A stretch of 64,000 bases of DNA from NCBI GenBank assembly GCA_043813805.1, contig JBDRKR010000010.1, positions 16,696-80,695 of the forward strand, in the 5' to 3' direction. A program made the translations under genes and the position numbers. Origin of the DNA: Candidatus Nealsonbacteria bacterium (GTDB lineage: Bacteria; Patescibacteriota; Minisyncoccia; Minisyncoccales; MHMH01). Positions 3,101 to 43,680 of this stretch are shown piece by piece. The notes beneath the pieces were generated by a model. That model was not told the origin of the DNA. It saw only the letters and a list, made by a program, of their open reading frames with translations, and did no database searches. Position 1 is the first letter of the stretch. Each line of letters opens with the position of its first letter.

Positions 3101-3130
3101 AAATGAAAGAGGTTAAACCTCTTTCATTTT
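3101..3130. repeat. Copy 1 of a 30-bp dispersed palindromic repeat (AAATGAAAGAGGTTAAACCTCTTTCATTTT), terminator-like
   Basis: Perfect inverted repeat with a 5-nt loop, followed by a T-run. Similar copies occur at 9541, 10976, 19507, 23815 and 43655. Confidence 0.8.
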
Positions 3131-3197
3131 TGTTACTTGCTTTTTTAGGGAATAGGCGTATGATGAAAGCAGAGGTTAACTTTTGGGAGCACGTATT

Positions 3198-3416
3198 ATG
3201 ACCAAAAAACAGCAATTTTTATCAGAACACAACCGATTGGCCTCTTTCGACATGCAAGCGACAGCTTCCATGCTGACTCTTTTTAAAACAGAAAAACCGG
3301 CTATTTTTAAAGACAATAACTGGTCCACAGAAAAACTGCGCAGGCCTTTCATTTTCTGGATGACATCCTTGACTCCCAAAGAAAAAGAAGATTTTATCAG
3401 GGCCGAGAAAGCGTAA
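3198..3416 (+). CDS. Hypothetical small protein (72 aa)
   Basis: ATG preceded by GGGAG. Upstream is TTGCTT-N16-TATGAT. Downstream is the hairpin gcccc-gtga-agggg plus a T-run at 3443-3470. This is preferred over the overlapping minus-strand ORF 3176-3421. Confidence 0.4.
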   Translation: MTKKQQFLSEHNRLASFDMQATASMLTLFKTEKPAIFKDNNWSTEKLRRPFIFWMTSLTPKEKEDFIRAEKA

Positions 3417-3503
3417 TTCATTAATTTAATATTTTCAAACAGTCAGCCCCGTGAAGGGGTTTTGTTGTTTACGAAATCAAATCGAACGTGTAAGATATAT
3501 ATT

Positions 3504-6161
3504 ATGATGAAAAAAACCCAAAAGTTTATTTATTATTTCGGAGGCAAAAAAGCCGAAGGTTCCAAAGACATGAAGGATTTGCTGGGCGGCAAAGGAGCTA
3601 ATTTGGCGGAGATGATTAATTTGGGCATTCCGGTTCCGCCCGGGTTTACCGTCACCACAAAAGTCTGCAATTATTCTTATCAATATAAGGGCAAATTGCC
3701 TCAGGGATTCGATGTTCAGTTCAAAAAGACGGTCGAGAGATTGGAGAAAGAAGCCGGCAAAAAACTGGGCGATGCCAAAGATCCTTTATTGGTGTCGATC
3801 AGAAGCGGTTCGAAGTTTTCCATGCCCGGCATGATGGATACGATTTTAAACCTGGGGTTAAACGACGAAATCGTCGAGGGTCTGGCTGTAAAAACAAAAA
3901 ATCCGAGATTCGCCTTCGACGCTTACCGGAGGTTCATTCAAATGTTCGGCAATATCGTTTTGGCCGTACCCAAAGAAGAATTCGAGCATATTTTAACCAA
4001 GAGCAAGGAGGCGCTGGGCGTTAAGTTTGATACCGAGATTCGCGAAGAAGGTTTAAAAAATATCATCGCTCAATACAAAGCTTTAATTAAGCGCAAAACC
4101 AATTCTGAAATTCCTCAAGATGTTTTGTGTCAATTGGTTATGGCTCGCGACGCTGTTTTTAAGAGCTGGGGCAATCCGCGGGCTGTTACTTACCGCAGAT
4201 TAAATAAGATTTCCGAGAGCTTGGGCACGGCCGTTAATGTTCAGGTAATGGTTTTTGGCAATACGGGTGATACCGGCGCCACGGGGGTCGGATTTACGCG
4301 CGATCCTTCAACCGGCGAGAAGAAATTTTACGGCGAGTATCTGACCAATGCCCAAGGCGAGGATGTTGTAGCCGGCATTCGCACTCCAAAACAGATTACC
4401 AATTTGGCTCAAGAAATGCCCGCTATTTTCAAGCAGCTTTTGACCGCTACGACTCGTTTGGAAAAACACTATCGCGATATCCAGGATTTTGAATTTACCA
4501 TTGAAAATGGAAAGCTGTTTTTATTGCAGACGAGAACCGGCAAAAGGACCGCGGCCGCCGCCGTCAAAATCGCCGTTGATATGGTGAAAGAAAAATTGAT
4601 TACTAAAGAAGAGGCTTTGATGCGCATCGATCCCGATCAAATCAATCAATTATTGCATCCTATTATTGATCCTAAGGCAAAAGTTAATGTTATCGCCAAA
4701 GGTCTGCCGGCTTCTCCCGGAGCGGCTTCGGGCAAGGTTGTTTTTACGGCCGATAAAGCGGTGCAACTGGCTGATGAAAAATTAATTTTAGTCCGCACGG
4801 AAACCTGTCCCGACGATATTCACGGCATGGATGCGGCCCAGGGTATTTTAACGGCCCGGGGCGGCATGACGAGTCACGCCGCGGTCGTGGCTCGCGGCAT
4901 GGGCAAGTGCTGCATCGCCGGCTGCGAAGAAATAAAAATTAATGAAGCAAAAGGAGAGTTCCGTGTCGGAAATATTATTGTCAAAGAAGGGGATGTAATA
5001 ACCTTGGACGGCAGCACGGGTCGGGTGATTTTAGGAAAAGTGCCGACCATCGATTCGGCGTTAAGTTCAGAATTCAATTATCTGATGGACATTGTCGATA
5101 AAACCAAGAAATTGGGAGTCAGAGCCAACGCCGATATTCCCAGGGACGCCAAAACCGCCAGGAAGTTCGGAGCTCAAGGCATTGGGCTCTGCCGCACCGA
5201 ACACATGTTTTTTGACGAAGCTCGCCTGCCGATAATGCAAAAAATGATTTTATCGGAAGACGAAGCTTCGCGAAGAAAAGCTTTGCAGGAATTGCTGCCT
5301 TTCCAGAAAGAGGATTTTAAGGGCCTGTTCAGCGAAATGGAAGGGCATGCCGTAACAATCAGAATGATTGATCCGCCGTTGCACGAATTTTTGCCGAAAA
5401 ATGAAATTGAGGCGCAAAAGCTTTCCGAAAAAATCGGCATACCTGCGGCCAAGATTTTAGCCAAGTCAGACGAGCTCCATGAAGTAAATCCTATGCTCGG
5501 GCACCGGGGCTGCCGTTTGGGAATCACTTATCCCGAAATCACGGAAATGCAGACAAGGGCTATTATTTCTGCCGCCTGCGAATTGTACAAAGAAAAAAAG
5601 ATCAGGGTTGTCCCTGAAATCATGATTCCCTTGGTGGGCGATGTAGCTGAATTTAGAAATCAAAAAGAAATCGTCGACAGGGTGGCTATGGAGGTCATGA
5701 AACAATACGGAGCCAAAATAATTTATACCGTGGGCACGATGATTGAGGTTCCCAGGGCGGCCATTACCGCCGATAAGATTGCCAAAGAAGCCGAATTCTT
5801 TTCTTTCGGCACAAACGACCTGACTCAAATGGGCATGGGATTTTCGCGGGATGATGCCGCCAAATTCACTAAAGTATATCTGGAAAAGAAGATTCTTAAA
5901 GCCGATCCGTTCCAAACCTTAGATCAAGAGGGTATTGGGCAACTTATAATTTTGGGGATTAAAAAGGGCAGATCTGTGAAAAAGAATCTGAAAATAGGCA
6001 TTTGCGGAGAGCACGGCGGCGATCCGGAAAGCGTCAAATTCTGTCATAGAGCCGGCATGGATTATGTCAGCTGTTCGCCCTACCGGGTTTCTATTGCGAA
6101 ATTTGCCGCCGCTCAAGCGGTCATCGAAGATAAGCTGAAAATCGAATATACTTCCAAATAG
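3504..6161 (+). CDS. ppdK: Pyruvate, phosphate dikinase
   Basis: GGKGANLAEM ATP-grasp motif, central phospho-His domain (GGMTSHAAVVARG) and C-terminal PEP-utilising TIM barrel. Start moved to the internal ATG at 3504, which fits the PPDK N-terminus. Confidence 0.93.
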   Translation: MMKKTQKFIYYFGGKKAEGSKDMKDLLGGKGANLAEMINLGIPVPPGFTVTTKVCNYSYQYKGKLPQGFDVQFKKTVERLEKEAGKKLGDAKDPLLVSIRSGSKFSMPGMMDTILNLGLNDEIVEGLAVKTKNPRFAFDAYRRFIQMFGNIVLAVPKEEFEHILTKSKEALGVKFDTEIREEGLKNIIAQYKALIKRKTNSEIPQDVLCQLVMARDAVFKSWGNPRAVTYRRLNKISESLGTAVNVQVMVFGNTGDTGATGVGFTRDPSTGEKKFYGEYLTNAQGEDVVAGIRTPKQITNLAQEMPAIFKQLLTATTRLEKHYRDIQDFEFTIENGKLFLLQTRTGKRTAAAAVKIAVDMVKEKLITKEEALMRIDPDQINQLLHPIIDPKAKVNVIAKGLPASPGAASGKVVFTADKAVQLADEKLILVRTETCPDDIHGMDAAQGILTARGGMTSHAAVVARGMGKCCIAGCEEIKINEAKGEFRVGNIIVKEGDVITLDGSTGRVILGKVPTIDSALSSEFNYLMDIVDKTKKLGVRANADIPRDAKTARKFGAQGIGLCRTEHMFFDEARLPIMQKMILSEDEASRRKALQELLPFQKEDFKGLFSEMEGHAVTIRMIDPPLHEFLPKNEIEAQKLSEKIGIPAAKILAKSDELHEVNPMLGHRGCRLGITYPEITEMQTRAIISAACELYKEKKIRVVPEIMIPLVGDVAEFRNQKEIVDRVAMEVMKQYGAKIIYTVGTMIEVPRAAITADKIAKEAEFFSFGTNDLTQMGMGFSRDDAAKFTKVYLEKKILKADPFQTLDQEGIGQLIILGIKKGRSVKKNLKIGICGEHGGDPESVKFCHRAGMDYVSCSPYRVSIAKFAAAQAVIEDKLKIEYTSK

Positions 6162-6172
6162 CAGACAAACAA

Positions 6173-6205
6173 ATCCCGCCGGGAAATCCGGCGGGGTTTT
6201 GTTTT
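6173..6205 (+). terminator. Intrinsic terminator after ppdK, immediately followed by the TTGACA of the next promoter
   Basis: cccgccgg-gaaat-ccggcggg hairpin plus a T-run. This GTTTTGACAAA arrangement recurs after many genes. Confidence 0.7.
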
Positions 6206-6286
6206 GACAAAATGTTTCAAAAATGGCAAACTGACATGGCGTAAAAGTATTGATCTTTCACATTTTTATATAGAGGAGGTGCCGGA

Positions 6287-6742
6287 ATGGCAGCTGAACA
6301 GGAAGTTGTCGTCATTGATTTAGACGGAACCATTACTCGGCATGGTTTTTTCAACCTTAATATACCTCTGCCCTGGTGGTCGTGGTTTTTTTTAAGCCCC
6401 TTTTTTTTGGTTGTTTATGTTTTGGCATCAAAGCCCAAAAAAGGAATAGCAGAAAAAATGCGGGCAATGAAGAAACGAGGTTGTCGGTTTGTAATTTTAA
6501 CGCGCCGGCCACATCAGTTCTTTTGTTTCTGGATTACTAAACGATTGCTGTTATTCCATCGCATACCATTCGATAATCTTTTCTGCGTCGGGTTTGGCAG
6601 GGGAGCAAATGAACGGAAGCTGAAAATTATTAAAGAAATAAAGGCAAAGGCGTTTGTTGACAGCGACAAGCACATGGTCGAGTTTATGCAAAAAAACTCG
6701 GTTAATGCGGTAATAAGTCTCGAATATCTCGATTATAATTAA
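6287..6742 (+). CDS. HAD-like hydrolase (small, with a hydrophobic insert)
   Basis: VVIDLDGTIT matches the DxDGT motif I. ILTRRP and FVDSD resemble motifs II and IV. AGGAGG RBS is present. Confidence 0.45.
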   Translation: MAAEQEVVVIDLDGTITRHGFFNLNIPLPWWSWFFLSPFFLVVYVLASKPKKGIAEKMRAMKKRGCRFVILTRRPHQFFCFWITKRLLLFHRIPFDNLFCVGFGRGANERKLKIIKEIKAKAFVDSDKHMVEFMQKNSVNAVISLEYLDYN

Positions 6743-6811
6743 GAAAACCCCGTTCGTTAGCTCGGACGGGGTTTTACAATAGGATTTTATTACTGTAGAA
6801 TTTAAAAATAT

Positions 6812-7174
6812 ATGATTTTCTTCACATATTTCAAAAACCTGTTAAATAGCTTCAAGTTCGCCTTTTCGGGCATGAAATTAATCATTAAAGAAGAGTATGC
6901 TTTCAGGGTCATGCTTTTAGCGGCGGTTCTGGTGATTGTCGGCATGTTTTATTTTAATCTGCCCGTGATGCAAAAGGCGGTTTTGTTCATCATGATTTTC
7001 TTAGTCCTGATTTTAGAGCTGATTAATTCGGTCGTTGAAGAAGTTTTGGATTTTATTCATCCTGGATTCAACGGAAAAGTAAAAATCATCAAAGATATGC
7101 TGGCGGGCATGGTGTTGCTCGCTTCTTTAGGCGCGGCCATAATTGGCCTGTTAATCTTCCTGCCGTATTTTTAA
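6812..7174 (+). CDS. dgkA: Diacylglycerol kinase / undecaprenol kinase family (DgkA)
   Basis: The 120 aa three-TM protein carries an ELINSVVEEVLD motif, which is typical of prokaryotic DAGK. Confidence 0.7.
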   Translation: MIFFTYFKNLLNSFKFAFSGMKLIIKEEYAFRVMLLAAVLVIVGMFYFNLPVMQKAVLFIMIFLVLILELINSVVEEVLDFIHPGFNGKVKIIKDMLAGMVLLASLGAAIIGLLIFLPYF

Positions 7175-7251
7175 CAGCTTGACTTTTCGGGAAAATTGAT
7201 TAAGATAATCTATAGCTCTTTGGACAAAATAGCGTAAGAGGAGGGCAGATA

Positions 7252-7749
7252 ATGACTCTATGGAATGTTTCTCTCAAACAGCGGCAAGTGTTCATCAAGG
7301 TGAAAGAGGTTCTTCAAAAAGGGCAGGGATTTAAGATTATTGTTGACAACCGGGGAAAACAGCATCGGCTTTCCGAAGTCGATTTCCCTTCTTTCTATTG
7401 GAAGGAAATCGTCGTAGGCTCAACGATTACCTTAACCGTTTCAGAGGTTGTGACGCGTTGGCAAGTCCAGTCGCCGAAGATCGAAAAAAGCATCAAAAAG
7501 TTTATCGCTGAAGCGCAAAAAAAGAATTCAGGTCTTTTTTTTCTTTGGATTTGCGAGCACTGCAGAACGACCGGCTGCGTTGAATATGAGGACGGAGACG
7601 ATTCTCAGATAATCGCCGGACATATCATTTCGGCTCATCGGAAAGAAGCCAAACCGGATTGTTCGCAAGAGGCTATCCGTATCTTTGATCACCGGGGTGA
7701 AGAACAGAAAAATTCCGAGCTGTTGTTATCCTGTTGTAAGGTAGCGTAG
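7252..7749 (+). CDS. Hypothetical protein
   Basis: ORF with AGGAGGG RBS and an upstream TTGACT-N16-TAAGAT promoter. Confidence 0.5.
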   Translation: MTLWNVSLKQRQVFIKVKEVLQKGQGFKIIVDNRGKQHRLSEVDFPSFYWKEIVVGSTITLTVSEVVTRWQVQSPKIEKSIKKFIAEAQKKNSGLFFLWICEHCRTTGCVEYEDGDDSQIIAGHIISAHRKEAKPDCSQEAIRIFDHRGEEQKNSELLLSCCKVA

Positions 7750-7862
7750 TTAAAGAAAAGGTCCCAGCCAAATTGCCGGGACCTTTTTGTTTTGACAAAA
7801 CATCTCAAAAAGAGGATAATTAAAAAAGAAAGGCATTATTAATAATTAACCGTTTAAAAAAT

Positions 7863-8636
7863 ATGATGGGTGCAATTTACGTAGTTTTAATCATAGTCTT
7901 ATTTATCATTTTAATTTCCATCAAGCAGATTACCCAATATCAAAGAGGGTTGAGATTTACTTTCGGCCGATTCTCGGGGCTGATGAATCCCGGATGGCGG
8001 CTCGTCTGGCCGATCATCCAGTTTTACAAGAAAGTGGATTTAAGGGTGAAAGCCGTGGACGTGCCTAACCAGGAAGCCATTACCAAAGACAATATTTCGG
8101 TTTCGGTCAATGCCGTGATTTATTATCGGATTAAGGAGGCCGATAAGGCGGTTTTGGAAGTGGAGGACTTTTTCTACGCCATTTCGCAATTGGCCCAAAC
8201 AACCATGAGAAATGCCGTGGGCCAAGTGGACTTGGACGAGCTGCTTTCCGCCAGAGACAGGGTTTCAGAAAATATCAGAGCCATTATCGACAAAGCCAGC
8301 GATCCGTGGGGGATTGCGGTAATTAACGTGGAGCTCAAAGACATCACTTTGCCCGAAGAAATGAAACGCGTCATCGGCAAGCAGGCCGAAGCCGAAAGAG
8401 AAAAAAGAGCCATTATCATCAAGGCCGAAGGCGAAGTGATTGCCGCCGCCAACATGGCTAAGGCCGCCAATACCTTGTCGGAGTCCAGTGGCGCTCTCCA
8501 TTTGCGGACATTGCAGTCAATCAATGACATCAGCTCGGACCAGTCAAACACCATTGTTTTTGCCGTTCCATTGGAAATTCTCAGGGCCTTTGAAGGATTC
8601 GGTAAAAAATCGCTTAAAGACGAAGAGAAGAAATAA
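7863..8636 (+). CDS. SPFH / band-7 (stomatin-prohibitin-like) membrane protein
   Basis: N-terminal TM helix, then a slipin-like core (YQRGL..FG.F, PGW.LV.P) and a C-terminal coiled coil rich in AEAEREK. Confidence 0.85.
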   Translation: MMGAIYVVLIIVLFIILISIKQITQYQRGLRFTFGRFSGLMNPGWRLVWPIIQFYKKVDLRVKAVDVPNQEAITKDNISVSVNAVIYYRIKEADKAVLEVEDFFYAISQLAQTTMRNAVGQVDLDELLSARDRVSENIRAIIDKASDPWGIAVINVELKDITLPEEMKRVIGKQAEAEREKRAIIIKAEGEVIAAANMAKAANTLSESSGALHLRTLQSINDISSDQSNTIVFAVPLEILRAFEGFGKKSLKDEEKK

Positions 8637-8703
8637 ATACGAATCTGAAAGGAAAAACTCCGGGTTTTCACTCGGAGTTTTTTTGTTACTTAAGAGGGCG
8701 TTT

Positions 8704-9006
8704 TTAAGCGGGTACGGTATTCAGAATGGGAGCAGGGTTTACAACTTCTTTTGGATTTTCGGCCTGAATCGGTTTTTGTTCGAGCTCGAAACGGATTCTC
8801 GTATCAAGGCAATGATCGGATTGGACGGGAGCAGCGTTGTTTATGGTTGCTTTTTGCCAGTTTCTGGGTGCCGGGGTGGTGCGGCTGAAAAGAATGACTT
8901 CTTCCATTAGCTGTCCGCCGCATTCGCACGTTATCCTGCGGCAATTCATCGGATAGATGTTTCCGCAGTTTTCCTGACAGGCGAGTCCGTGAAGATAGTG
9001 TTGCAA
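8704..9006 (-). CDS. Hypothetical Cys-rich protein (TTG start)
   Basis: AAAAGGAGGG lies 9 nt upstream on the minus strand. The gene is convergent with the SPFH gene and shares the bidirectional hairpin at 8652-8690. The N-terminus has a CxxxC..CxC..C pattern. Confidence 0.45.
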   Translation of the reverse strand: MQHYLHGLACQENCGNIYPMNCRRITCECGGQLMEEVILFSRTTPAPRNWQKATINNAAPVQSDHCLDTRIRFELEQKPIQAENPKEVVNPAPILNTVPA

Positions 9007-9136
9007 TTTGCCCTCCTTTTTCTATTTTTACCGTTTCAATGTGCTACATGAGCTTAAGTATATTTCAGGCAGGGTAAATGTCAACCCCTGCGGATAAATG
9101 GACAAAATGTCCAAAAAAGAGGATAATTAAAACAGC

Positions 9137-9496: not shown

Positions 9497-9540
9497 AAGA
9501 CCGTCTCTCGCTGGGCGGTTTTTTGTTTTGACAAAGGTTT

Positions 9541-9570
9541 AAATGAAAGAGGGTAAACCTCTTTCATTTT
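9541..9570. repeat. Copy 2 of the 30-bp palindromic repeat
   Basis: AAATGAAAGAGGGTAAACCTCTTTCATTTT. Confidence 0.8.
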
Positions 9571-9650: not shown

Positions 9651-10814
9651 ATGCAGGGAATCGAACGGGCATACTCTGATGTATGTATCAATGCGCTTGT
9701 GGGGGCATGGAGCGAGCTGATGGAGGCGACCGGAACGGAAGCTCTCCGCAAGGGACGCTATGGTAAGGGCGATACGCTCGGCTTGGACGCTATCACTGAG
9801 ATTACTATCAAAGGACGGCTGGAAGAATTTGATCAGCATGCCATTCTGATAACCGAAGAGCTTGATAATCAGGCTCACCGGCGCTGGCCGACCGATTCAA
9901 TCCCGGAGAGACAACCGATTATGTTTTTTTGTGATCCGACGGACCGTTCGTTTTCGCTCGAGGAGTTTTTGAAGCGTATTTCCGAGCAAAATCCGACAGA
10001 TAAGGTTGGCAACCTCATGGCAAGCTGCAAAGCCGAAGAAATATGGGAAAAAATGTTTAAGGCGCCGGTTAGTATTACCGGTGCGGCCGGCGCCATTGCG
10101 TGCGTACGGAAAGGAGAAATTGTTTTTTCCGTAATTCTTAATTATATTACCGGCATCATTTATGTGGCAACCGAGATTGATGTGTTTTGGTATCAGCTTA
10201 ACAATTTCTCTGATCCTGTAAATGAAGAGGTTACTTTAGCTAAAATTCTCAAGAAAGGGAAGAAACTGGTTTTCCCGGGCGTGCGTGAGTGCGGCTATTC
10301 GCCGGATGATTGTAAACGGTTTGTGACATTTCTGGGCAAACCGGGATATAAGGAAAATTTTGATGACAGTTTGCTGTTTACCGAGGAGTCCGGCGCGTTT
10401 TTGCATTATTCGGAGCCTCCCGGACCGTCGCGTGTGCTTTATCTTTCCGAGCTTCAGAACAAACATGGTCCCATCGGATTTATCCTGGATAACGGTGAAA
10501 AGATCGGCGAATGGATGCCCTGGCTTGCGTTTGTAAAATACGCGCGGAATGGCAACGGCGGTCATGCGTTACGGGCTTATGAAATTCCACTTGAGCGTCC
10601 TTGGACCAAGAACGGAGTGCTGATGTCCACTTCTCCGGCTTATAGCATTTTTTGCGATACCGGAGATAAAATGTATCTTGACATCAGCCGCTTGCGTAAT
10701 TTTGAACGCCCGAGCCAATTCCGTTGTATGATGGTGGTGGTTCCATATAATAATGAACGGATTATTCACATCCTTGAGCAACAGCGGTACCGCGAGATAA
10801 CCCATTCGTTCTAA
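9651..10814 (+). CDS. Divergent IMPase/FBPase-superfamily-like protein; reads as higher GC than surrounding genes and may be horizontally acquired
   Basis: ITEELD acidic motif, FFCDPTDRSFS (a DPxDGT-like motif) and TGAAGAIACVRKGE (a WDxAAG-like motif). AAGGAGG RBS is present. The gene is flanked by palindromic repeat copies on both sides. Confidence 0.4.
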   Translation: MQGIERAYSDVCINALVGAWSELMEATGTEALRKGRYGKGDTLGLDAITEITIKGRLEEFDQHAILITEELDNQAHRRWPTDSIPERQPIMFFCDPTDRSFSLEEFLKRISEQNPTDKVGNLMASCKAEEIWEKMFKAPVSITGAAGAIACVRKGEIVFSVILNYITGIIYVATEIDVFWYQLNNFSDPVNEEVTLAKILKKGKKLVFPGVRECGYSPDDCKRFVTFLGKPGYKENFDDSLLFTEESGAFLHYSEPPGPSRVLYLSELQNKHGPIGFILDNGEKIGEWMPWLAFVKYARNGNGGHALRAYEIPLERPWTKNGVLMSTSPAYSIFCDTGDKMYLDISRLRNFERPSQFRCMMVVVPYNNERIIHILEQQRYREITHSF

Positions 10815-10975
10815 GAAACGAAAGAAAGGAAAGGAAGTTATTGTCAAAGGTTATGGCTGGGAAGTTGAGCCAAACGTGGAAATCCGCATCGATATAGAAA
10901 CCGGTGCACAAAGAGGGAAGCGATAAGCGCATTTAGAAAGCCGTTCTGGTAAATCAGACGGCTTTTTGTTTTGAT

Positions 10976-10997
10976 AGAGGTTTAACCTCTTTCATTT
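10976..10997. repeat. Partial copy 3 of the palindromic repeat
   Basis: AGAGGTTTAACCTCTTTCATTT. Confidence 0.6.
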
Positions 10998-16389: not shown

Positions 16390-16417
16390 TATCGCCGAAG
16401 AGGCGGTTTTTATTTGC

Positions 16418-19364: not shown

Positions 19365-19506
19365 ATTAAAGTAATTATATTTGAAATAAGATACTAATGT
19401 TTCATTTTGTGCAATGTCAGACAAGATTATAGTGATGACCTTATGTCGCATAAGCGCCATGCTTGGTATAAAAAGCGATAAATAACTAAAACTTAGGCCG
19501 GGGGTA

Positions 19507-19534
19507 AAATGAAAGAGGCTAAACCTCTTTCAGC
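19507..19534. repeat. Copy 4 of the palindromic repeat (GGCTAAACC loop variant)
   Basis: aaaatgaaagaggctaaacctctttcag. A half-copy gaggtttagcctc follows at 19541-19553. Confidence 0.7.
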
Positions 19535-19596
19535 GCGATTGAGGTTTAGCCTCATTAAACATCGCCCAAAAGGCGATATTTTGGTAGGATAAAAAC

Positions 19597-20106
19597 ATGA
19601 AGAAGATAATTTATATAGTTTTATTTATGATTATTATAGCTGCCGGCGCAGCGGTTTGGTGGGTTGGGACAAACAAAGCGCCGGCAGAACAGGTTTCCTG
19701 CACCTTGGAAGCTAAGCTTTGTCCTGATGGATCGGCTGTTGGCCGTACCGGGCAAAATTGCGAGTTTACAGCCTGTCCGGAGGTAAAGACGGGCGTATTA
19801 ACGGGAAGGGTGACAATCGGGCCCTTGTGCCCGGTAGAGCGCATACCCCCGGACCCCAGATGTCAGCCGACTGAAGCTACGTATAAGGCCTGGCAGATAG
19901 CTGTTTATACTGCTGACAAGACAACAAAACTTGCCCAAATTGAGCCTAATTTGGACGGAAGCTACGAAGTCGGGCTGCCGGCGGGTGAATATCTGATTGA
20001 TTTTGAAGAGAAGCACGCTTTTGCCTGGAGTTTGCCCAAAACCGTCACTATTACAAAAGACGAGACCGCGGTCTTGAATATTGATATTGATACCGGGATA
20101 AGGTAA
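19597..20106 (+). CDS. Secreted/membrane-anchored Cys-containing hypothetical protein
   Basis: N-terminal hydrophobic helix. Leaderless promoter hairpin-TGGTAGGAT-N6-ATG. Confidence 0.5.
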   Translation: MKKIIYIVLFMIIIAAGAAVWWVGTNKAPAEQVSCTLEAKLCPDGSAVGRTGQNCEFTACPEVKTGVLTGRVTIGPLCPVERIPPDPRCQPTEATYKAWQIAVYTADKTTKLAQIEPNLDGSYEVGLPAGEYLIDFEEKHAFAWSLPKTVTITKDETAVLNIDIDTGIR

Positions 20107-22634: not shown

Positions 22635-23192
22635 ATGAAGAAGCAGATTATCTTGCAAAATAAAAGAATAACTTACGCGCTTCGCAAAAGTAAAAGAGCG
22701 CGGAGAATGAGACTGGCGGTTTATTGCGACGGATCGGTGATTGTCACGACGCCGTTTAATTTGCAGGAAAATATTGCCGAAAGATTTATTGAAGAAAAGA
22801 TGGGCTGGCTCCTGTCTAAAATTGATCATTTCAAACATTTTAAATATAAACATATCAGGCGGCAGGGCCGTCAAGATTATTTAAAATATAAAGAGAGGGC
22901 CGTCTCTTTGGTTGAAGAAAGAGTGTCTTATTTCAATAAAATTTACGATTTTAAATATAATAAAATCAATATAAAGAACCAAAAAACCCGCTGGGGGAGC
23001 TGCTCCAAAAAAGGAAATCTGAACTTTAATTATAAAATTGCGTTACTGCCGCAGTATCTGGCTGATTATATTATTGCCCATGAGCTGTGCCATCTTATTG
23101 AATTCAGTCACTCCCGGAAATTTTGGAATTTTGTCCGAAAACTTGTGCCCAATTATCCGGAGATAAGAAGGGAACTGAAGAGTTATAAATGA
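22635..23192 (+). CDS. YgjP-like (DUF45/WLM-type) metal-dependent hydrolase
   Basis: WGSCS...DYIIAHELCHLIEFSHSRKFW motif. Confidence 0.75.
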   Translation: MKKQIILQNKRITYALRKSKRARRMRLAVYCDGSVIVTTPFNLQENIAERFIEEKMGWLLSKIDHFKHFKYKHIRRQGRQDYLKYKERAVSLVEERVSYFNKIYDFKYNKINIKNQKTRWGSCSKKGNLNFNYKIALLPQYLADYIIAHELCHLIEFSHSRKFWNFVRKLVPNYPEIRRELKSYK

Positions 23193-23806
23193 TCAAAATG
23201 AATGTTTTTAAAAAATTACATAAAAAACTCAAGAAGAAACACGGGACGCCAAAGGGCCAGTGGAAGCTTTGGTGTAAAAGACCGAAAACGGACGGGGAGA
23301 GAGAAGAGGTGATTATCGGAGCGGTTTTGACGCAGATAACCAACTGGAGGAATGTTGAGATGGCCATGAACAATTTGAAAAAAGCCAAGACAGGTTCTTT
23401 AAAAAATATTTATCGGCTGGGGCCGAAAAAGTTGGAGAACTTGATTAAACCATCCGGGTTTTACAGAACCAAGGCCCGATATCTGTTTAATTTGGCCAAG
23501 TTTATTATTGAAAATTATGGCAGCGTGGCAAAGATGAGAAAGAAGGAACTTAAAGAGTTAAGAGAGAAGCTGCTGGAATTGAAGGGTATCGGGCCTGAAA
23601 CCGCCGACAGTATTTTACTTTACGCTTTAGATAAGCCAATTTTTGTGATCGACGAATATACCAGAAGGCTGCTCAAAGAGTGTAATTTGGCCGACAGGGC
23701 GGATTATCATTTTTTACAGAAAAGGTTTGAAAAAAGTTTAAGAAAAGACTTTCGCTTATATCAGGATTTCCACGCCCTGATTGTTATTAACGGTAAAAAT
23801 TCTTAG
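23189..23806 (+). CDS. HhH-GPD superfamily DNA glycosylase-like protein (endonuclease III-related)
   Basis: LKGIGPETADSILLYALDKPIFVIDEYTRRL is a helix-hairpin-helix motif. The start overlaps the YgjP-like stop, suggesting translational coupling. Confidence 0.65.
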   Translation: MIKMNVFKKLHKKLKKKHGTPKGQWKLWCKRPKTDGEREEVIIGAVLTQITNWRNVEMAMNNLKKAKTGSLKNIYRLGPKKLENLIKPSGFYRTKARYLFNLAKFIIENYGSVAKMRKKELKELREKLLELKGIGPETADSILLYALDKPIFVIDEYTRRLLKECNLADRADYHFLQKRFEKSLRKDFRLYQDFHALIVINGKNS

Positions 23807-23814
23807 CGGCCGGG

Positions 23815-23845
23815 AAAATGAAAGAGGTTTAGCCTCTTTCATTTT
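23815..23845. repeat. Copy 5 of the palindromic repeat
   Basis: aaaatgaaagaggtttagcctctttcatttt. Confidence 0.8.
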
Positions 23846-23931
23846 CGCCAAGAGGATGGGTTTTGTGGTATAATAAATCCGTTAGGGATGATCCTCAACC
23901 TGAATCATATTTTAAATAATAAAATAATTAT

Positions 23932-27896: not shown

Positions 27897-27954
27897 GCGA
27901 GGCCGAACTTCAATTAATATCGCTGAACGGGCGATATTTTGGTAGAATAAAAGC

Positions 27955-28173
27955 ATGAAGATTTTTGTTAAGGTAAAACCAGCGGCGAAAGAGGATAAGG
28001 TGGAAAAGATTAACGAGACCACTTTTTATATTGAAGTGAAAGAGCCGCCCGTAAAAGGCAGAGCGAATGCGGCCGTAATCAGGACACTCGCCGATTATTT
28101 TGGCATTGCCCAAGCGGATGTGAAAATTATTTCGGGTTATACTTCAAGATTAAAAACCATTGAAATCAAATGA
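27955..28173 (+). CDS. DUF167 (YggU-like) family protein
   Basis: KVKPAAKEDKV...VKEPPVKGRANAAVIRTLADYFGIAQADVKIISGYTSRLK. Confidence 0.7.
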   Translation: MKIFVKVKPAAKEDKVEKINETTFYIEVKEPPVKGRANAAVIRTLADYFGIAQADVKIISGYTSRLKTIEIK

Positions 28174-35373: not shown

Positions 35374-35378
35374 ACAAT

Positions 35379-38278: not shown

Positions 38279-39345
38279 TGCCGTTATCAATCGGAATCGT
38301 GGGGTTGCCTAATGTGGGGAAGTCCACGCTGTTTCAAACCATCACCAAAATCCAGGTAAATATCGCCAATTACCCCTTTTGCACCATTGACCCCAACGTG
38401 GGCGTGGTTGCCGTACCCGATGAAAGGGTGGATAAGCTGGCGGAATTAACTAAGTCCATAAAAAAGATTTATACCACGATTGAGTTTTACGATATCGCGG
38501 GCTTGGTCAAAGGCGCCAATAAAGGCGAAGGATTGGGCAACAAGTTTTTGGCCAACATCAGGGAAACCGATGCGATTGTTTACGTTTTGCGCGCTTTTTT
38601 GGATAAAGAAACCATTAATACGCGCCAAGAAGTTGATCCCATCGCCGAAAAAGAGATTCTGGATACGGAACTGATTTTAAAAGATTCAGAAACCGTGGAA
38701 AAAAGAATGCACGGATTAGCCAGCGATGTCAGGGCGGGGAAAAAGGAATGTGTTAAAGAATACGGAGTGTTGGAAAAGATTAAAGGATTTCTGGACCAGG
38801 GCAAGATTCTGACTGAACAGAGTTTCAGTACGGAAGATCAGAAAATTATTGATCAGTATCAGCTGTTAACGGCCAAGCCCAGATTTTATTTACTCAACGG
38901 CCGCGATGAAGAGGTGCCCAAAAATATCATTGAAACATTTCAAAAAAATAATTGGCAGTTTTTAATCGTTGACGTTTTAACCGAGTTCGGGGCCACCGAT
39001 CTGAACCGCGAAGAAAGAATTGCTTTGGGACTGCCCGAAAACACGGAAATGGGCCTTTTGATTAAGAAAGCCTACGAAATTTTAGGGCTGATCACTTTTT
39101 TGACAACAGGGCCCGATGAAACGCGGGCTTGGACGTTGAAACGCGGCAATACGGCTCCGCAAGCCGGAGGAGCTATTCATACTGATTTTGAATCTCATTT
39201 TATTAAGGCCGACGTCATCAGCTGGCAGACACTTTTGGATGTCGGCGGTTTCGTTAAAGCGAGAGAAAAAGGCCTTATCCGCACCGAAGGCAAAGAGTAC
39301 CTCGTACAGGACGGCGACGTCATCGAAATCAAACATAATGCCTAA
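38278..39345 (+). CDS. ychF: Ribosome-binding ATPase YchF (Obg family) with TGS domain
   Basis: GIVGLPNVGKSTLF and NYPFCTIDPNVG motifs. C-terminal TGS domain. Confidence 0.9.
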   Translation: MPLSIGIVGLPNVGKSTLFQTITKIQVNIANYPFCTIDPNVGVVAVPDERVDKLAELTKSIKKIYTTIEFYDIAGLVKGANKGEGLGNKFLANIRETDAIVYVLRAFLDKETINTRQEVDPIAEKEILDTELILKDSETVEKRMHGLASDVRAGKKECVKEYGVLEKIKGFLDQGKILTEQSFSTEDQKIIDQYQLLTAKPRFYLLNGRDEEVPKNIIETFQKNNWQFLIVDVLTEFGATDLNREERIALGLPENTEMGLLIKKAYEILGLITFLTTGPDETRAWTLKRGNTAPQAGGAIHTDFESHFIKADVISWQTLLDVGGFVKAREKGLIRTEGKEYLVQDGDVIEIKHNA

Positions 39346-39484
39346 AAAACTCGCTCCCAAAGGGCGATTTTTTGCGACTTGACAATTTTAATATTAGATG
39401 ATAGTATATTTGAGGTAAAACGCTCATTGAAAATTAGAGCGGAAAGGAAGGAGAAAAAGTGAAAAGGAAAAAGGAGGAACACAA

Positions 39485-39928
39485 ATGAATGGTGGCAAGG
39501 TGGCTAAGTGGTTTCTACTTGGAGTGGCGGCAATTATCGTTCTCGGGGTGGTGGGTTTCGGGATCACCATGATTTTCCGTCCATTTCAGGTGGCGGAGAA
39601 GGTTACAGATCCGGACCGGGCGCTCTACACCTATGAGTGGTTTTTCAACACGAAGGCATCGGTGGATAGCTACGCCGCCCAGGTGAAAGTGGCTTCGGCG
39701 GCGGTTGAAACCTTCAAGCAAGACCATGTCAGTAACCTGGAGAGCTATCAGAACAGTACGGAGTTGTCGAGATTGCGGGCAGTGGAACAAGGGTTGAGGA
39801 ACCAATTAATTACCACGATAAACCAGTACAACGCCAATGCCCAAAATAAGAGTCGAAGCATCTTCAAAGACTGGAATCTGCCGGCTTCGCTCTCGGTAAC
39901 CCAGGACGGCAGAGTGGTAGCTAATTAG
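39485..39928 (+). CDS. Membrane-anchored hypothetical protein
   Basis: AAAAGGAGG RBS and an N-terminal TM helix. Codon usage is visibly more GC-rich than that of its neighbours. Confidence 0.5.
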   Translation: MNGGKVAKWFLLGVAAIIVLGVVGFGITMIFRPFQVAEKVTDPDRALYTYEWFFNTKASVDSYAAQVKVASAAVETFKQDHVSNLESYQNSTELSRLRAVEQGLRNQLITTINQYNANAQNKSRSIFKDWNLPASLSVTQDGRVVAN

Positions 39929-39946
39929 TAAAGGGAGGAAAGAAAG

Positions 39947-40429
39947 ATGAAAAAGGTTATTGCGGTTTTAGTGGTCATCCTGCTGGCGGTAGCGGTTCTG
40001 ACGGGTTGTAGTACGATGCAAGAGGAGTGGGCTAATAGTTCTCGGCAAATGAGTAAATATCAAAAAACGCAACCCATACCGGTGTTAGACTTTTCCAATA
40101 CTCGGCAAGCGGTTATCGATCGGATTAATCGGTGGAGCGACCCTAATAAGATCAGTTATGTTTATCTTCTTGGCGACACCGGGGTGGTTATAGCTTTTTA
40201 TACCGCAAAAGGCAGTATAGAGAGTAAAAGAAGCTACCTGTCTCCCGTACAGGGGCAGTATGGCGACTTACCTGATGTCGACGGAACGTACGGAGACAAC
40301 AAGGATGCCATTTTCTTTTTTACTACGGAAGGAGCTTACGTGGAATGGCCCGGATTATATCTGTGGTCGGATCAGCCTCTGAAACTTACCACGCAACCAG
40401 TTTTGGTCTATACTGCACCTTTGAAATGA
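39947..40429 (+). CDS. Lipoprotein (lipobox LTGC)
   Basis: Signal peptide with VLTGCS and an AAGGGAGG RBS. Tandem terminators follow at 40441-40475 and 40501-40540. Confidence 0.55.
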   Translation: MKKVIAVLVVILLAVAVLTGCSTMQEEWANSSRQMSKYQKTQPIPVLDFSNTRQAVIDRINRWSDPNKISYVYLLGDTGVVIAFYTAKGSIESKRSYLSPVQGQYGDLPDVDGTYGDNKDAIFFFTTEGAYVEWPGLYLWSDQPLKLTTQPVLVYTAPLK

Positions 40430-40540
40430 AGTAAAAAAAAGCGGCATTGACTTTGAGTCTTTGCCGCTTTTTGTTTGATGATAATATTATTTAAAAAAAC
40501 AACCCCGCCCTCACGTGAGGGCGGGGTTTCATTCTAAAGA

Positions 40541-40729
40541 TTAGCGTCCAAATCTTTGGGTGCGTCTCTTGGAATGACAATCGCGGCAATAGATCGGTCT
40601 GTCTCCAGAAGGCTGAAAGGGAAGCTCGGTGATCTCTGTTCCGCAATCGGAACATTTCCAGCTTCCTTTTACCATTTCTCTGGGAGCAAAATCTCTAGCC
40701 GGTCGGTCGTCAAATTTCTTGAATTCCAT
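40541..40729 (-). CDS. Zinc-ribbon protein (CxxC...CxxC)
   Basis: CSDCGTEITELPFQPSGDRPIYCRDCH motif. It uses the bidirectional hairpin at 40501-40540 as its terminator. Confidence 0.45.
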   Translation of the reverse strand: MEFKKFDDRPARDFAPREMVKGSWKCSDCGTEITELPFQPSGDRPIYCRDCHSKRRTQRFGR

Positions 40730-40897
40730 TGTTTTGCTTAAATTAAATAGCGACCTTTTTATGAATCCTAAGTCGCTATACTTAATCTAAGATACTTCGA
40801 CTTATTCATCTACGTGCATTATACTCCCTTTGTACAACATGTCAAGGGGTGTGGTATGATATAATCAGTCGAAGTTGTTAATATTAATTTTAAACTT

Positions 40898-41296
40898 ATG
40901 AAAGGATTTATTAATAATATCGAAAAATTAACACTGGCAAATAATAATTTTCGCAAGGTGTTGTATACCGCGAAGCACAGTCAGCTTGTTTTAATGAGCT
41001 TGGAGCCCGGCGAAGAAATCGGGGAGGAAATTCATGATACTCTGGATCAGTTTTTCCGATTTGAAAAGGGCAAAGGTAAAGTGGTAATCGAAGGGAAAGA
41101 ATCTGAAATAACCGACGGATCGGCTGTTGTGATTCCGGCGGGGACTAACCACAACATTATTAATACTTCTCAACAGGAAGCGTTGAAACTTTATACGATT
41201 TATTCTCCGCCCAACCACACTGATGGCGTCGAATTTAAAACAAAAGAAGAAGCCGAGGCATCCGACGAACACTTTGACGGAAAGCTCAGCGAATAA
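40898..41296 (+). CDS. Cupin domain protein
   Basis: Cupin_2 pattern G.E...H......F....G.G...........G..V.IPAGT.HN. Confidence 0.7.
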   Translation: MKGFINNIEKLTLANNNFRKVLYTAKHSQLVLMSLEPGEEIGEEIHDTLDQFFRFEKGKGKVVIEGKESEITDGSAVVIPAGTNHNIINTSQQEALKLYTIYSPPNHTDGVEFKTKEEAEASDEHFDGKLSE

Positions 41297-41361
41297 ATTA
41301 AGAAAAGAGGGAGTCGATGACTCCCTTTTTTCTTGGGCGATTTGTGATAAGATGATGAAAT

Positions 41362-42198
41362 ATGAATAAGAAAATCATTCTAGCCATATTGGTTATTTTA
41401 ATTTTAGGAGGAGCTGCCGCTTATTTTAAGTTTTATTCCAATTCGGTGGCTGACGAGATATCGCCTTCGGGCTTGGTTATAGTTACGAGTCCTCGGGCCA
41501 ATCAAACCGTCCAAAGTCCGCTGATTGTTAAGGGAGAGGCTAAGGGTTTTTGGTTTTTTGAAGCAAGCTTCCCGATTAAGATTTTAGATGAAAACGGCAA
41601 TGTTTTGGGCCAGGGGATCGCCCAGGCCAAATCCGATTGGATGACCGAAGAATTCGTGCCCTTTGAAGCTACGCTTGATTTTGAAGCTCCGGTCACCGAA
41701 AAAGGATTTTTGGTTTTAAAAAAAGATAATCCTTCGGGGCTTCCCGAAAACGATGCAGAGTTTCGGATTCCGGTCGTTTTAGAAAAAACTCAAGCTAAAC
41801 AAACAATTGATCTTTATTATTACAATCCCGAGTTGGATAAAGATGAATCGGGTAATATTATGTGCAGCAAGCAGGGGCTTGTTCAAATCCAAAGAAAAAT
41901 TCCCGTTACCCAAACGCCGATTCAGGATACGATAAAACTTTTAATAAAAGGCGAATTAATCGGCGAAGAAAGGGAGCGGGGCATCAGTACTGAATATCCT
42001 TTGCCGGGATTTTCTTTAGAAAGCGTTCCCTCATTTAAAGACGGTGTTTTAACGCTTCAATTTAATGACCCCGACAATAAAACAGGTGGAGGAGCCTGCA
42101 GAGTAGGCATCTTATGGTTTCAGATTGAAGACACGGCCAAGCAGTTCGCCGGGGTCACTCAAGTACGTTTCTTACCCGAGGATCTTTTCCAGCCTTAA
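41362..42198 (+). CDS. Secreted/anchored protein with Ig-like (Gmad2) and GerMN-like domains
   Basis: N-terminal TM helix. Composition resembles the GerMN family, which is often annotated in these lineages. Confidence 0.45.
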   Translation: MNKKIILAILVILILGGAAAYFKFYSNSVADEISPSGLVIVTSPRANQTVQSPLIVKGEAKGFWFFEASFPIKILDENGNVLGQGIAQAKSDWMTEEFVPFEATLDFEAPVTEKGFLVLKKDNPSGLPENDAEFRIPVVLEKTQAKQTIDLYYYNPELDKDESGNIMCSKQGLVQIQRKIPVTQTPIQDTIKLLIKGELIGEERERGISTEYPLPGFSLESVPSFKDGVLTLQFNDPDNKTGGGACRVGILWFQIEDTAKQFAGVTQVRFLPEDLFQP

Positions 42199-42206
42199 GT
42201 ATTACA

Positions 42207-43463
42207 ATGTTTAAAAATAACCAAACAATTTTTGATGTGGCGGTAATCGGCGCGGGCCCGGCGGGCCTGATGACTGCAGGCAGGGCGGCGGAACTTGGGA
42301 AGAAAGTGGTGCTTTTGGAAAAGAATAAAAAGCCGGGAAGGAAACTCGTGCTCACGGGTAAAGGCCGGTGCAACATCACCAATGCCGAATTCGATTTAAA
42401 AAAATTGGTGGAAAACTACGGCAAAAAGGGCCAATTTCTTTTCCACGCTTTTCATGTTTTCGGCCCCCAAAAAGCCATTGAGTTTTTCGAGAAGTGGGGC
42501 TTAAAAACAAAAATAGAAAGAGGCAAGCGGGTTTTTCCGGTAAGCGATGATGCCCAAGATGTTCTGAATGTTTTTATCAAGTATTTGCTGAAGGGCAAGG
42601 TAAGCTTCGTTTACGGCACTCCTGTCATCGATATCGAAAGAAAAAAACATCACATCAATAAACTGATTTTAAAGGAGGGCGAAATTATCGCCAGGAACTA
42701 TATTATCTGCACCGGCGGCAAGTCTTATCCGGCCACTGGGTCTACCGGCGACGGCTATGAATGGGTAAAAAAGGTGGGCCATAGCATCGAAGGCTTGATG
42801 CCGGCTTTGGCGCCTCTAAAAATAAGAGAGAAATGGGTCGGGGGTCTTCAGGGTTTGAGTTTAAAAAACGTGGAAGTGACGATTCTCCAAGAAAATAAGA
42901 AAGAATTCAGCGTTTTCGGCGAGTGTTTGTTCACGCATTTTGGGTTGTCCGGGCCGATTATTTTAGACGCAAGCCTGAAAGTCGGAGAACTTTTGCACGC
43001 CAAGGGCGGTGGAGCCGTCGAAATATCGCTTGATCTGAAGCCGGCTTTGGATTTTGAAACGCTGGACGCCCGGCTTCAGCGAGATTTACAAAAATACCAC
43101 AATAAACTTTTTCAGAATTGTTTGGACGATCTTCTGCCTCAAAAGATGATTCCGGTCATTATTAAGTTTTCCGGCATCGATCCCTTAAAAAAAGCGACTT
43201 ATGTCACCAGGGAAGAAAGGCATATTCTTGTCCGGCTTTTGAAGAATCTTAAAATGACGGTAGCCGGGCTTTCGGATTTTGAGTCGGCGATCGTAACGGC
43301 CGGCGGAGTTTCTTTGAAAGAAATCGACGACAAGACGATGAAATCACGGATTGTCGATAATTTATTCTTTGCCGGAGAAATTATTGACGTAACCGGGCCA
43401 AGCGGCGGGTTTAATCTGCAGATATGCTGGAGTACCGGGTATCTAGCTGGGGAAAACGCCTAA
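42207..43463 (+). CDS. HI0933/BaiN-like NAD(FAD)-utilising flavoprotein
   Basis: FDVAVIGAGPAGLMTA dinucleotide-binding motif, TGKGRCNITN and a C-terminal GG..L motif. Confidence 0.8.
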   Translation: MFKNNQTIFDVAVIGAGPAGLMTAGRAAELGKKVVLLEKNKKPGRKLVLTGKGRCNITNAEFDLKKLVENYGKKGQFLFHAFHVFGPQKAIEFFEKWGLKTKIERGKRVFPVSDDAQDVLNVFIKYLLKGKVSFVYGTPVIDIERKKHHINKLILKEGEIIARNYIICTGGKSYPATGSTGDGYEWVKKVGHSIEGLMPALAPLKIREKWVGGLQGLSLKNVEVTILQENKKEFSVFGECLFTHFGLSGPIILDASLKVGELLHAKGGGAVEISLDLKPALDFETLDARLQRDLQKYHNKLFQNCLDDLLPQKMIPVIIKFSGIDPLKKATYVTREERHILVRLLKNLKMTVAGLSDFESAIVTAGGVSLKEIDDKTMKSRIVDNLFFAGEIIDVTGPSGGFNLQICWSTGYLAGENA

Positions 43464-43473
43464 TCTAATTGTT

Positions 43474-43516
43474 GGATTTACGAAATCCAACATATATGAT
43501 GGGATTTCGTAAATCC
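43474..43516. repeat. GGATTTACGAAATCC double-hairpin element (copy B)
   Basis: ggatttacgaaatcc-aacatatatgatg-ggatttcgtaaatcc. Confidence 0.7.
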
Positions 43517-43528
43517 CCAAAAAATGGC

Positions 43529-43650
43529 TTGACAGGGGTGCTTGGTGCGGTAAAATATAAGTGTCATCGATGTCTTCGGATGTCTTTGACAAGAAGGGGA
43601 TCCTTTTGCTTCGGCAATTGTGGTCCTCCTTTCTTTTTTATCTGAACTAT
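43529..43650 (+). ncRNA. Candidate small RNA: an orphan TTGACA-N17-TAAAAT promoter with a transcript of roughly 80 nt ending at a T-run, in a 313-nt intergenic region
   Basis: cttgacaggggtgcttggtgcggtaaaat, then about 80 nt with partial self-complementarity (aaggggatcc/ggtcctcctt) and ctttctttttta. No SD-led ORF is present. Confidence 0.25.
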
Positions 43651-43654
43651 ATAA

Positions 43655-43680
43655 GTGAAAGAGGTTTAGCCTCTTTCATC
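43655..43680. repeat. Copy 6 of the palindromic repeat
   Basis: gtgaaagaggtttagcctctttcatc. Confidence 0.75.

Follow-up and report, generated by a model that had tools for sequence, protein, structure and literature searches.

A family of short palindromes dispersed through 64,000 nucleotides of Candidatus Nealsonbacteria DNA (contig JBDRKR010000010.1, positions 16,696 to 80,695; this whole stretch is referred to below as the window) likely represents repetitive extragenic palindrome (REP)-type repeats of a REPtron-like system, with a Y1 enzyme resembling the REP-associated tyrosine transposases (RAYTs) as its presumed partner. The palindrome consensus, (AAA)ATGAAAGAGG-N5-CCTCTTTCAT(TTT), spans 27-31 bp, and six intergenic copies are present in the window. 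Scanning the window for GAAAGAGG-N5-CCTCTTTC identified five copies with the exact stem, at 3105, 9545, 19511, 23820 and 43657, while the sixth, at 10973, carries one stem mismatch (GATAGAGG). In dinucleotide-preserving shuffles only 0.05 GAAAGAGG-N5-CCTCTTTC sites were expected, and the expectation for the 27-mer at ≤3 mismatches was 0.00. The commonest 16-mers of the whole window come from the palindrome, and its apex, GAGG-N5-CCTC, occurs eight times against 0.5 expected. REPs are described as small, dispersed palindromes of 20-50 nt that are mostly intergenic and usually carry a GTAG tetranucleotide 5′ of the hairpin (PMC8266576). The palindromes of the window are of this size, forming stem-loops of 27-31 nt with 9-14 perfect pairs.

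A Y1 protein gene flanked by the palindromes

The initial annotation suggested looking for a RAYT gene. None was identified in the window, but in related contigs an apparently single-copy gene matching the Pfam family Y1_Tnp is bracketed by this palindrome family. On a 2.3-kb contig (L004), a 226-amino-acid open reading frame (ORF) with this match (E value, 4e−8; score 33.8 versus a cut-off of 23) lies between yraN-like and pilin-like genes; one palindrome stops 8 nt short of its ATG, a second overlaps the stop codon and a third is internal. A total of 3798 homologues of about the same length were identified and, where named, these came from Patescibacteria and Omnitrophota. In 120 homologues, H81 and H83 of the HUH motif (NHFHL) and Y141 (RYIHLNP) were invariant. 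An AlphaFold model built on the alignment of the 120 homologues had a predicted local distance difference test score of 86 and a predicted template modeling (TM) score of 0.86. Foldseek placed 4ER8_A, a structure of the E. coli REP-associated tyrosine transposase in complex with a REP hairpin, as its top PDB match (E value, 3e−7; target TM score, 0.64), with the TnpA structures of IS608 and ISDra2 ranking after it (E values, ∼1e−4). Only residues 51-61, for which the internal palindrome codes, were modeled with low confidence. This loop has the family-wide pattern [R/G]-G-x-x-S, the translation of GAGG-N5-CCTC, and among close homologues its length is constant and its sequence tracks the local repeat version.

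Palindromes flank the Y1 gene in all eight independent contexts of the 226-amino-acid family that were fetched (L004, L126/L127, L128/L129, L130, L131, L132, L133 and L134), as well as on two duplicate contigs. The ORFs around the palindromes in these loci were taken from a simple ORF caller. In the seven contexts other than L004, palindromes of the form ATG-xxxx-GAGG-N5-CCTC-xxxx-CAT bracket the gene within ∼50 nt (7/7). The two flanking copies are mostly inverted relative to each other, and another copy is often found within the Y1 gene. L126 carries the sequence and loops of the window, with CTAAA upstream and TTTAG both inside and downstream; its downstream 27-mer is identical to window positions 23817-23843, within the copy at 23820. 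In L134, from the Hainich H43 metagenome, the loops are CCGAA upstream and TTCGG inside and downstream, which are the H43 loops. L133 has loops CTGAA and TTCAG, and in L128 an imperfect palindrome, TGACAGAGG-TTGAA-CCTTCATCA, lies upstream, with its exact reverse complement inside and downstream. Other stems were found in L132 (TGTTGGAGG and TGTTCGAGG), L130 (TGAGTGAGG, with doublets on both sides) and L131 (TGTGTGAGG). The 16-mers flanking the L126 gene are the commonest of the window, and those flanking the L134 gene are the commonest in loci of the metagenome-assembled genome (MAG) H43-bin052_1, loci that had been chosen for carrying the motif; the cross counts were zero. The initial reading of the window palindromes as a propagating element, similar to REPs or miniature inverted-repeat transposable elements rather than generic terminators, gains support from this bracketing of a Y1_Tnp gene, from the 4ER8 match and from the exact 27-mer of the window beside the L126 gene.

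In L004, L126, L128, L132 and L133 the Y1 gene follows yraN, at 73-76% protein identity, and a large pilin/LamG-type gene lies downstream. Where the locus reaches further upstream (L126, L128 and L132), the order is ComF-like, DprA, ComM, YraN and Y1. The conserved position after yraN argues for vertical inheritance of a single-copy gene, and most family members or clusters were seen on a single contig. From these arrangements the Y1 gene appears to be single-copy and vertically inherited. They also bear on whether the Y1 gene and its two terminal hairpins could form an autonomous IS200-like insertion sequence of ∼730 bp, with the solo palindromes as orphan ends or miniature derivatives. Hairpins do sit at both ends of a compact unit, Pfam describes Y1_Tnp as "Transposase IS200 like", and the presence of many homologues on very short contigs suggests assembly breaks at repeats. 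However, such an element is improbable given that the same neighbors recur in five contexts, most family members lie on one contig, a RAYT precedes IS608 and ISDra2 as the best fold match, and solo palindromes outnumber the gene.

Under the REPtron-like interpretation, the partner would be a single-copy, vertically inherited Y1 (HUH) nuclease/transposase of ∼226 amino acids with a fold related to that of E. coli TnpA-REP (RAYT). The genome from which the window derives probably encodes this protein, with the gene predicted to lie elsewhere in that genome, as it does beside comF-dprA-comM-yraN in the closest clade. By analogy with characterized RAYTs and the IS200/IS605 family, the enzyme would act on these palindromes by recognizing each unit once it has folded into a hairpin in single-stranded DNA; the analogy is based on E. 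coli TnpA-REP and IS200/IS605 (PMC3479197, PMC8266576). The TG...CA foot and the GAGG...CCTC apex are the likely recognition features. The enzyme would cut and rejoin at the foot, so that new copies could be placed in tolerant sites and old ones overwritten, leaving one stem and one loop version per genome.

Several further observations were made in the Y1 contexts. The neighbors of the gene are repeatedly DNA-processing genes, namely ComF-DprA-ComM-YraN in the closest clade, RuvB and YebC-RuvC in L131, UDG-PriA in L130 and a PolX/PHP-type polymerase in L139. At L134 748-785, the Y1 gene has a full palindrome downstream, after which come two additional partial 3′ arms, GGCCTCTTTCATTAG and AACCTCTTTCAATAA, as though slippage or abortive events had reiterated its 3′ half. 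In the ComF-like gene of L132 (3108-3134), the exact TGAAAGAGG...CCTCTTTCA stem occurs with the loop CGAAG, whereas the Y1 flanks there have the other stem, TGTTGGAGG; the copy may be a fossil of an earlier version. L139, from a close relative whose ArgRS is 85% identical to that of H43-bin052_1, carries another Y1_Tnp gene (5130-6020), of a different, 244-amino-acid subfamily. This gene is flanked by a different palindrome, again inverted, GT(A/G)CAGACG-CCCGA / GTACAGACG-TCGGG-CGTCTGTAC, and the two look like a second REP/RAYT pair in the clade. No stem version of the other lineages, nor the L139 palindrome, was found in the window, except for one isolated minus-strand single-arm match to TGATGAAGG.

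Lineage versions, in-gene copies and their replacement

The exact stem, TGAAAGAGG-N5-CCTCTTTCA, was searched for in 596 Gb of sequence comprising one genome per species, with the organism labels of MAGs taken as given. Of the 45 loci identified, 26 were in MAGs labeled Patescibacteria, Saccharibacteria or Nealsonbacteria, and the stem recurred in about ten Patescibacteria MAGs, several with multiple matches. The assembly of H43-bin052_1 holds 12 exact copies, four of them within genes. The remaining matches were singletons in unrelated phyla, at about the level of chance, which we estimated as roughly 9 in 596 Gb, given 18 fixed bases and equal base frequencies. Confinement of the copies to the window, named in the initial annotation as contrary to a propagating element, is therefore not what is observed. 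As a negative control, 80 loci of distant relatives (632 kb; Map protein ≤65% identical, poor synteny) were scanned, and no copies were found at ≤2 mismatches; viral contigs gave no exact match. In the Patescibacteria copies the flanks are again AAAATG...CATTTT, and the loop is specific to the genome, being CCGAA/TTCGG in H43-bin052_1, CGAAG in MAG co100_430 and CTAAA/TTTAG in the window. Copy totals look like tens rather than hundreds. One locus (L018) holds a 157-bp perfect direct repeat (56-212 and 1923-2079) with a palindrome in each repeat, around a 1.7-kb interval containing a large ORF (205-849) and two more unknown ORFs, none of them annotated. No transposase-like ORF was evident between the direct repeats, which may represent a duplication or an assembly artefact.

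Stem variation was assessed in an alignment of 41 copies and variants, selected by an [A/G]AGG...CCT[C/T] apex and ≥9/12 pairs, so that the conservation of the apex is partly imposed by this choice. The three middle stem pairs were changed on both sides in 8, 17 and 13 of the 41 sequences, with ≤3 broken pairs, and the T-A and G-C pairs of the foot were kept in 39/41. The covariation score was 0.29, compared with 0.10 for shuffled and ≤0.13 for slid controls. Structure is thus kept between lineages and sequence within a lineage, a pattern also described for REPs co-evolving with TnpA-REP (PMC8266576). Stems that vary while the structure is kept had been proposed at the outset as the mark of ordinary terminators. 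Such compensated variation does exist between lineages, but it tracks the hairpins beside the Y1 gene of each lineage, as REP/RAYT co-evolution predicts and ordinary terminators do not.

Gain, loss and change of version could be followed at orthologous sites. L135 (86% identical) has the same upstream gene, terminator and promoter around the orthologous gap but lacks the copy at 9545. Conversely, a copy in L020 follows the ortholog of the window gene at 54239-55219, where the window instead carries an ordinary terminator rich in GC. Overall, proteins of the window are about 80-90% identical to those of H43-bin052_1, and the product of ORF 9651-10814 is listed as 100% identical to a hypothetical protein (ABIG29_01025) of a Candidatus Nealsonbacteria MAG. 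Synteny with JBBTYF010000052 of H43-bin052_1 (L020 and L039) extends over window genes 40898-55219, most of whose proteins are 76-92% identical. Within this region the copy at 43657 and its ortholog at L039:363 share a position 16 nt past the T-run of one conserved upstream element. The two stems agree at 18/18 positions, while the loops, TTTAG and CCGAA, differ at 5/5. Independent point mutation is an implausible source of such a pattern, which requires replacement or conversion by the current version of the genome.

Copies within coding sequence are also versioned. Full palindromes lie in frame in ArgRS, IleRS, UvrC and KsgA of H43-bin052_1, where they encode MKEAEPLS or MKEVRPLS, and these copies have no T-run on the sense strand. 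At the same position of ArgRS, L139 carries TGTTGGAGG-CCGGG-CCTCGAACA, the imperfect stem version that flanks the L132 Y1 gene. Hairpins of the form GAGG-N5-CCTC, partly in inverted doublets, occupy the same position (nt ∼656-668) in the variable interdomain linker of DprA in three genomes (L126 7118-7993, L128 7198-8076 and L132 3252-4130), and their stems differ between the genomes in a compensated manner. Clean insertion into coding genes was considered and rejected, since homologues (41-85% identity) have the same length within ∼2 residues and carry related peptides.

One tentative explanation, which we regard as rather unlikely, is that the Y1 enzyme does more than insert new copies and swaps hairpin cassettes at their existing sites: a resident hairpin in single-stranded DNA would be cut at both feet and the current master version ligated in. 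Such an exchange would account for an orthologous intergenic copy keeping its position and stem while all five loop bases switch, for version change in ArgRS, DprA and the transposase gene without change in protein length, and for a single dialect across every copy in a genome. The conserved position of the Y1 gene beside comF-dprA-comM-yraN further allows for a role in transformation, in which the enzyme would work on single-stranded DNA that is entering the cell or being replicated. If so, essential proteins would be rewritten by a repeat-maintenance system.

Alternatively, the palindromes could be DNA uptake sequences of a naturally competent lineage, comparable with the inverted pairs of the Neisseria DNA uptake sequence (DUS) or the Haemophilus uptake signal sequence (USS), with biased uptake and recombination as the cause of their enrichment. 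The density of known uptake sequences is about one per kb. Lineage dialects, in-frame copies in variable protein parts without length change and the adjoining comF-dprA-comM genes would all fit, and Saccharibacteria are described as naturally competent (PMC10187176). We give this possibility only a slim chance, as single arms showed no enrichment outside palindromes, the density is one per 10-60 kb, and the inverted bracketing of the Y1 gene in each lineage would be left unexplained.

The initial annotation had also allowed for a specific protein-binding site. In this form the palindrome would be a double-stranded site for a dimeric transcription factor or nucleoid protein, with two conserved 9-bp half-sites and a free 5-bp spacer, which would suit the invariant arms, the variable center and the location of copies upstream of promoter-like hexamers. 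The results run against it, and it has the slimmest chance of the alternatives considered. The distance to the −10 hexamer differs between orthologous sites (50 nt versus 23 nt), the downstream genes are unrelated and share no functional theme, copies lie within coding sequences, and the spacer is uniform within a genome and different between genomes, a pattern that a free spacer would not predict.

The copies and other elements of the window

All six copies in the window sit between plus-strand ORFs, in line with the at least six intergenic sites after plus-strand genes reported in the initial annotation, whose coordinates were right to within a few bases. Copy 1 (3100..3130), AAAATGAAAGAGG-TTAAA-CCTCTTTCATTTT, lies 26 nt past the stop codon of ORF 2102-3079, is the sole hairpin in its gap and has a predicted RNA folding energy of −16.3 kcal/mol. 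Copy 2 (9541..9569), AAATGAAAGAGG-GTAAA-CCTCTTTCATTT, lies between an ordinary terminator (∼9507-9535) and a TTGACG −35-like hexamer. The slightly decayed copy 3 (10972..10996), TGATAGAGG-TTTAA-CCTCTTTCATT, which has the stem mismatch, abuts the T-run of an ordinary terminator and folds at −9.5 kcal/mol. Copy 4 (19506..19532), AAAATGAAAGAGG-CTAAA-CCTCTTTCA, has no T-run after it and is directly followed by a short partner (19541..19553), GAGGTTTAGCCTC, that is, GAGG-TTTAG-CCTC, the exact reverse complement of its apex. Together they resemble a REP plus inverted-REP doublet, the only one in the window. The same layout is present in L021, and doublets were also seen in L130 and the DprA linkers, although most copies are solitary. 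Copy 5 (23814..23846), GAAAATGAAAGAGG-TTTAG-CCTCTTTCATTTTC, lies 14 nt past the stop codon of ORF 23189-23806 and folds at −20.6 kcal/mol. Copy 6 (43654..43680), AGTGAAAGAGG-TTTAG-CCTCTTTCATC, follows a conserved small-RNA-like terminator, 16 nt past its T-run. With low confidence, GAGGCCGAACTTC at 27899..27911, a short apex with an H43-type loop and one broken pair, was identified as a possible decayed relic.

Pairing continues into the A and T runs to give 12-14 perfect pairs at 3100-3130, 9541-9569 and 23814-23846, and predicted folding energies across the copies range from −9.5 to −20.6 kcal/mol. The stems had been described as identical, which holds for the five exact copies, with 10973 differing by its one mismatch. 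Both of the loop versions described earlier were also seen. However, the plus-strand loops (in order TTAAA, GTAAA, TTTAA, CTAAA, TTTAG and TTTAG) are one type, NTAAA, read in both orientations, with three copies each way. The genes neighboring the copies (PPDK, TspO, SDR, DNA glycosylase and genes of unknown function) share no function. No Rfam family matched in the window at gathering thresholds, the tRNA scan of the window found none, and a literature search with the palindrome sequence returned only unrelated primer matches.

These positions bear on whether the palindromes could be ordinary bidirectional intrinsic terminators, their shared sequence being the preferred hairpin design of the lineage, with neither mobility nor a dedicated enzyme. 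Most intergenic copies have A-run and T-run flanks and are sited after genes, and hairpin stability reaches −20.6 kcal/mol. No other hairpin follows the gene at 3105 and 23820, where T-runs come after the copy. The L020 copy takes the place of the GC-rich terminator that the window has after the orthologous gene, a copy in L029 comes immediately after what, from its sequence, looks like a tRNA 3′ end, and compensated stem variants exist. Against this, all 18 stem bases are identical in five copies, whereas each of the other terminators in the window has a stem of its own. A separate terminator hairpin precedes three of the six copies (9545, 10973 and 43657), as the initial annotation had noted in describing the copies as often additional to one, and the copy at 19511 lacks a T-run. 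In-frame copies within essential genes, and the bracketing of the Y1 gene with matching versions in every context examined, are likewise not expected of terminators, making this explanation very improbable. With half of the copies beside an existing terminator, one without a T-run and others in essential genes, termination cannot be the defining role of the family. As REP-type repeats, the intergenic copies flanked by A- and T-runs may nonetheless also act as bidirectional terminators or RNA 3′-end stabilizers, but any terminator activity is probably secondary.

Other elements of the window were noted. A candidate small RNA at 43531-43640 has a conserved TTGACA-N16-TAAAAT promoter and a transcript of ∼85 nt with two hairpins and a U-run. 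It folds at −29.7 kcal/mol (z score, −3.6) and has no Rfam match; its promoter and transcript start are conserved in H43-bin052_1 (L039), and its 3′ arm, CCUCCUUUCUUUUUU, resembles the anti-Shine-Dalgarno sequence. A second recurrent hairpin, ATCGCC-N5-GGCGAT, was found at 16391, 18104, 19561, 26084, 27919, 37209 and 51548 (7 versus 0.21 expected). Six of the seven appear intergenic, with T-runs after them, and the hairpin could be a second repeat family or a favored terminator design. In addition, a 32-nt block, GGCGATATTTTGGTAGRATAAAARCATGAAGA, is common to 19572-19603 and 27930-27961. It consists of a terminator arm and an extended −10-like sequence, TGGTAGGAT, ∼6 nt before an ATG, and its layout suggests a promoter module for leaderless mRNA. 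The genes downstream of the two blocks are not paralogous, and a short GAGG-N5-C(C/T)TC hairpin precedes both blocks.

Relation to known systems and significance

Several results weigh against assigning the palindromes to a REPtron-like system. The NCBIfam RAYT model NF047646 scored 38.6 bits, below its cut-off of 80, and a PDB sequence-profile search with the Y1 family returned no match. The Y1 gene is absent from the 64-kb window by tblastn, and its link to the genome of the window rests on sequence identity with other metagenome contigs; likewise, L134 is an 804-bp contig tied to the H43 lineage by its site of origin and loop version only. The GTAG tetranucleotide is absent 5′ of the hairpins, where the conserved (A)ATG...CAT(T) form the foot of the stem itself. 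Simple transposition leaves the constant length of the coding region at in-gene copies unexplained, and copy number is modest, with six in the 64-kb window and 12 exact ones in the H43-bin052_1 assembly.

On the REPtron features that could be tested, namely short palindromes, flanking of a Y1 HUH gene, flanks that hold the commonest 16-mers, a TnpA-REP fold and an apparently single gene copy, the system nevertheless conforms. REPtrons with short perfect palindromes are known with the group 3 RAYT type in Stenotrophomonas, Pseudomonas and Marinomonas (PMC8266576, PMC5581495). As in REPtrons, the 20-50 nt palindromes are mostly intergenic, mostly inverted copies lie in the immediate flanks of an apparently single-copy HUH/Y1 gene, lineage versions co-vary with the gene, 4ER8 is the best fold match, and doublets of a unit and an inverted unit occur. 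In contrast with REPtrons, the foot is AT-rich (AATG...CATT) rather than GC-rich, with no GTAG-type tetranucleotide; the protein is longer (226 amino acids) and falls below the NCBIfam RAYT cut-off; an extra copy within the transposase ORF, conserved across a large family, encodes a disordered loop; in-frame copies occur in essential genes; and the hosts are tiny-genome Patescibacteria, in which copies number in the tens rather than the hundreds. The evidence indicates three unusual additions to a REPtron, namely a conserved copy in the transposase ORF, in-frame copies in essential genes and the rewriting of resident copies in place.

Other known systems share part of this picture. Like IS200/IS605 elements (IS608 and ISDra2), the system has a Y1 HUH enzyme with hairpins at both ends of the gene and presumably a similar single-stranded DNA mechanism, but here the gene is apparently single-copy and is syntenic, the solo hairpins are dispersed, and the fold match is weaker (E value, ∼1e−4 versus 3e−7 for the RAYT). 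Rickettsia palindromic elements likewise occupy in-frame positions of essential genes, where they become peptide segments on the protein surface. These, however, are insertions of 100-150 bp that lengthen the protein, whereas here the unit is 24-27 nt, the length of the region is constant among homologues and a candidate enzyme is identified. The inverted pairs of the Neisseria DUS and Pasteurellaceae USS act as terminators, and these sequences are conserved, have dialects and are accommodated in coding regions. The palindromes likewise conserve sequence and not structure alone, show lineage dialects, form palindromic pairs after genes and are accommodated in coding regions, but they lack a single-arm excess, are far less dense and are associated with a Y1 transposase gene.

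Within the literature library searched, no paper on REP/RAYT systems in Patescibacteria was found, and surveys of the Y1 family do not mention any of these lineages. Even in E. coli, the means by which REP sequences disseminate and remain uniform have yet to be resolved (PMC8266576). The genomes considered here offer a minimal setting for this question, at ∼1 Mb and with tens of copies, and a useful one, as the loop and mid-stem provide a read-out of version, copies lie in the transposase and in essential genes, and natural replacements of one version by another have occurred in place. Together these features make the mechanism of dissemination and homogenization directly testable with short oligonucleotides and comparative metagenomics. 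The result also accounts for assembly breaks at palindrome sites in these genomes, and it cautions annotators that a DNA hairpin dictates some of the short peptide segments found in Patescibacteria proteins.

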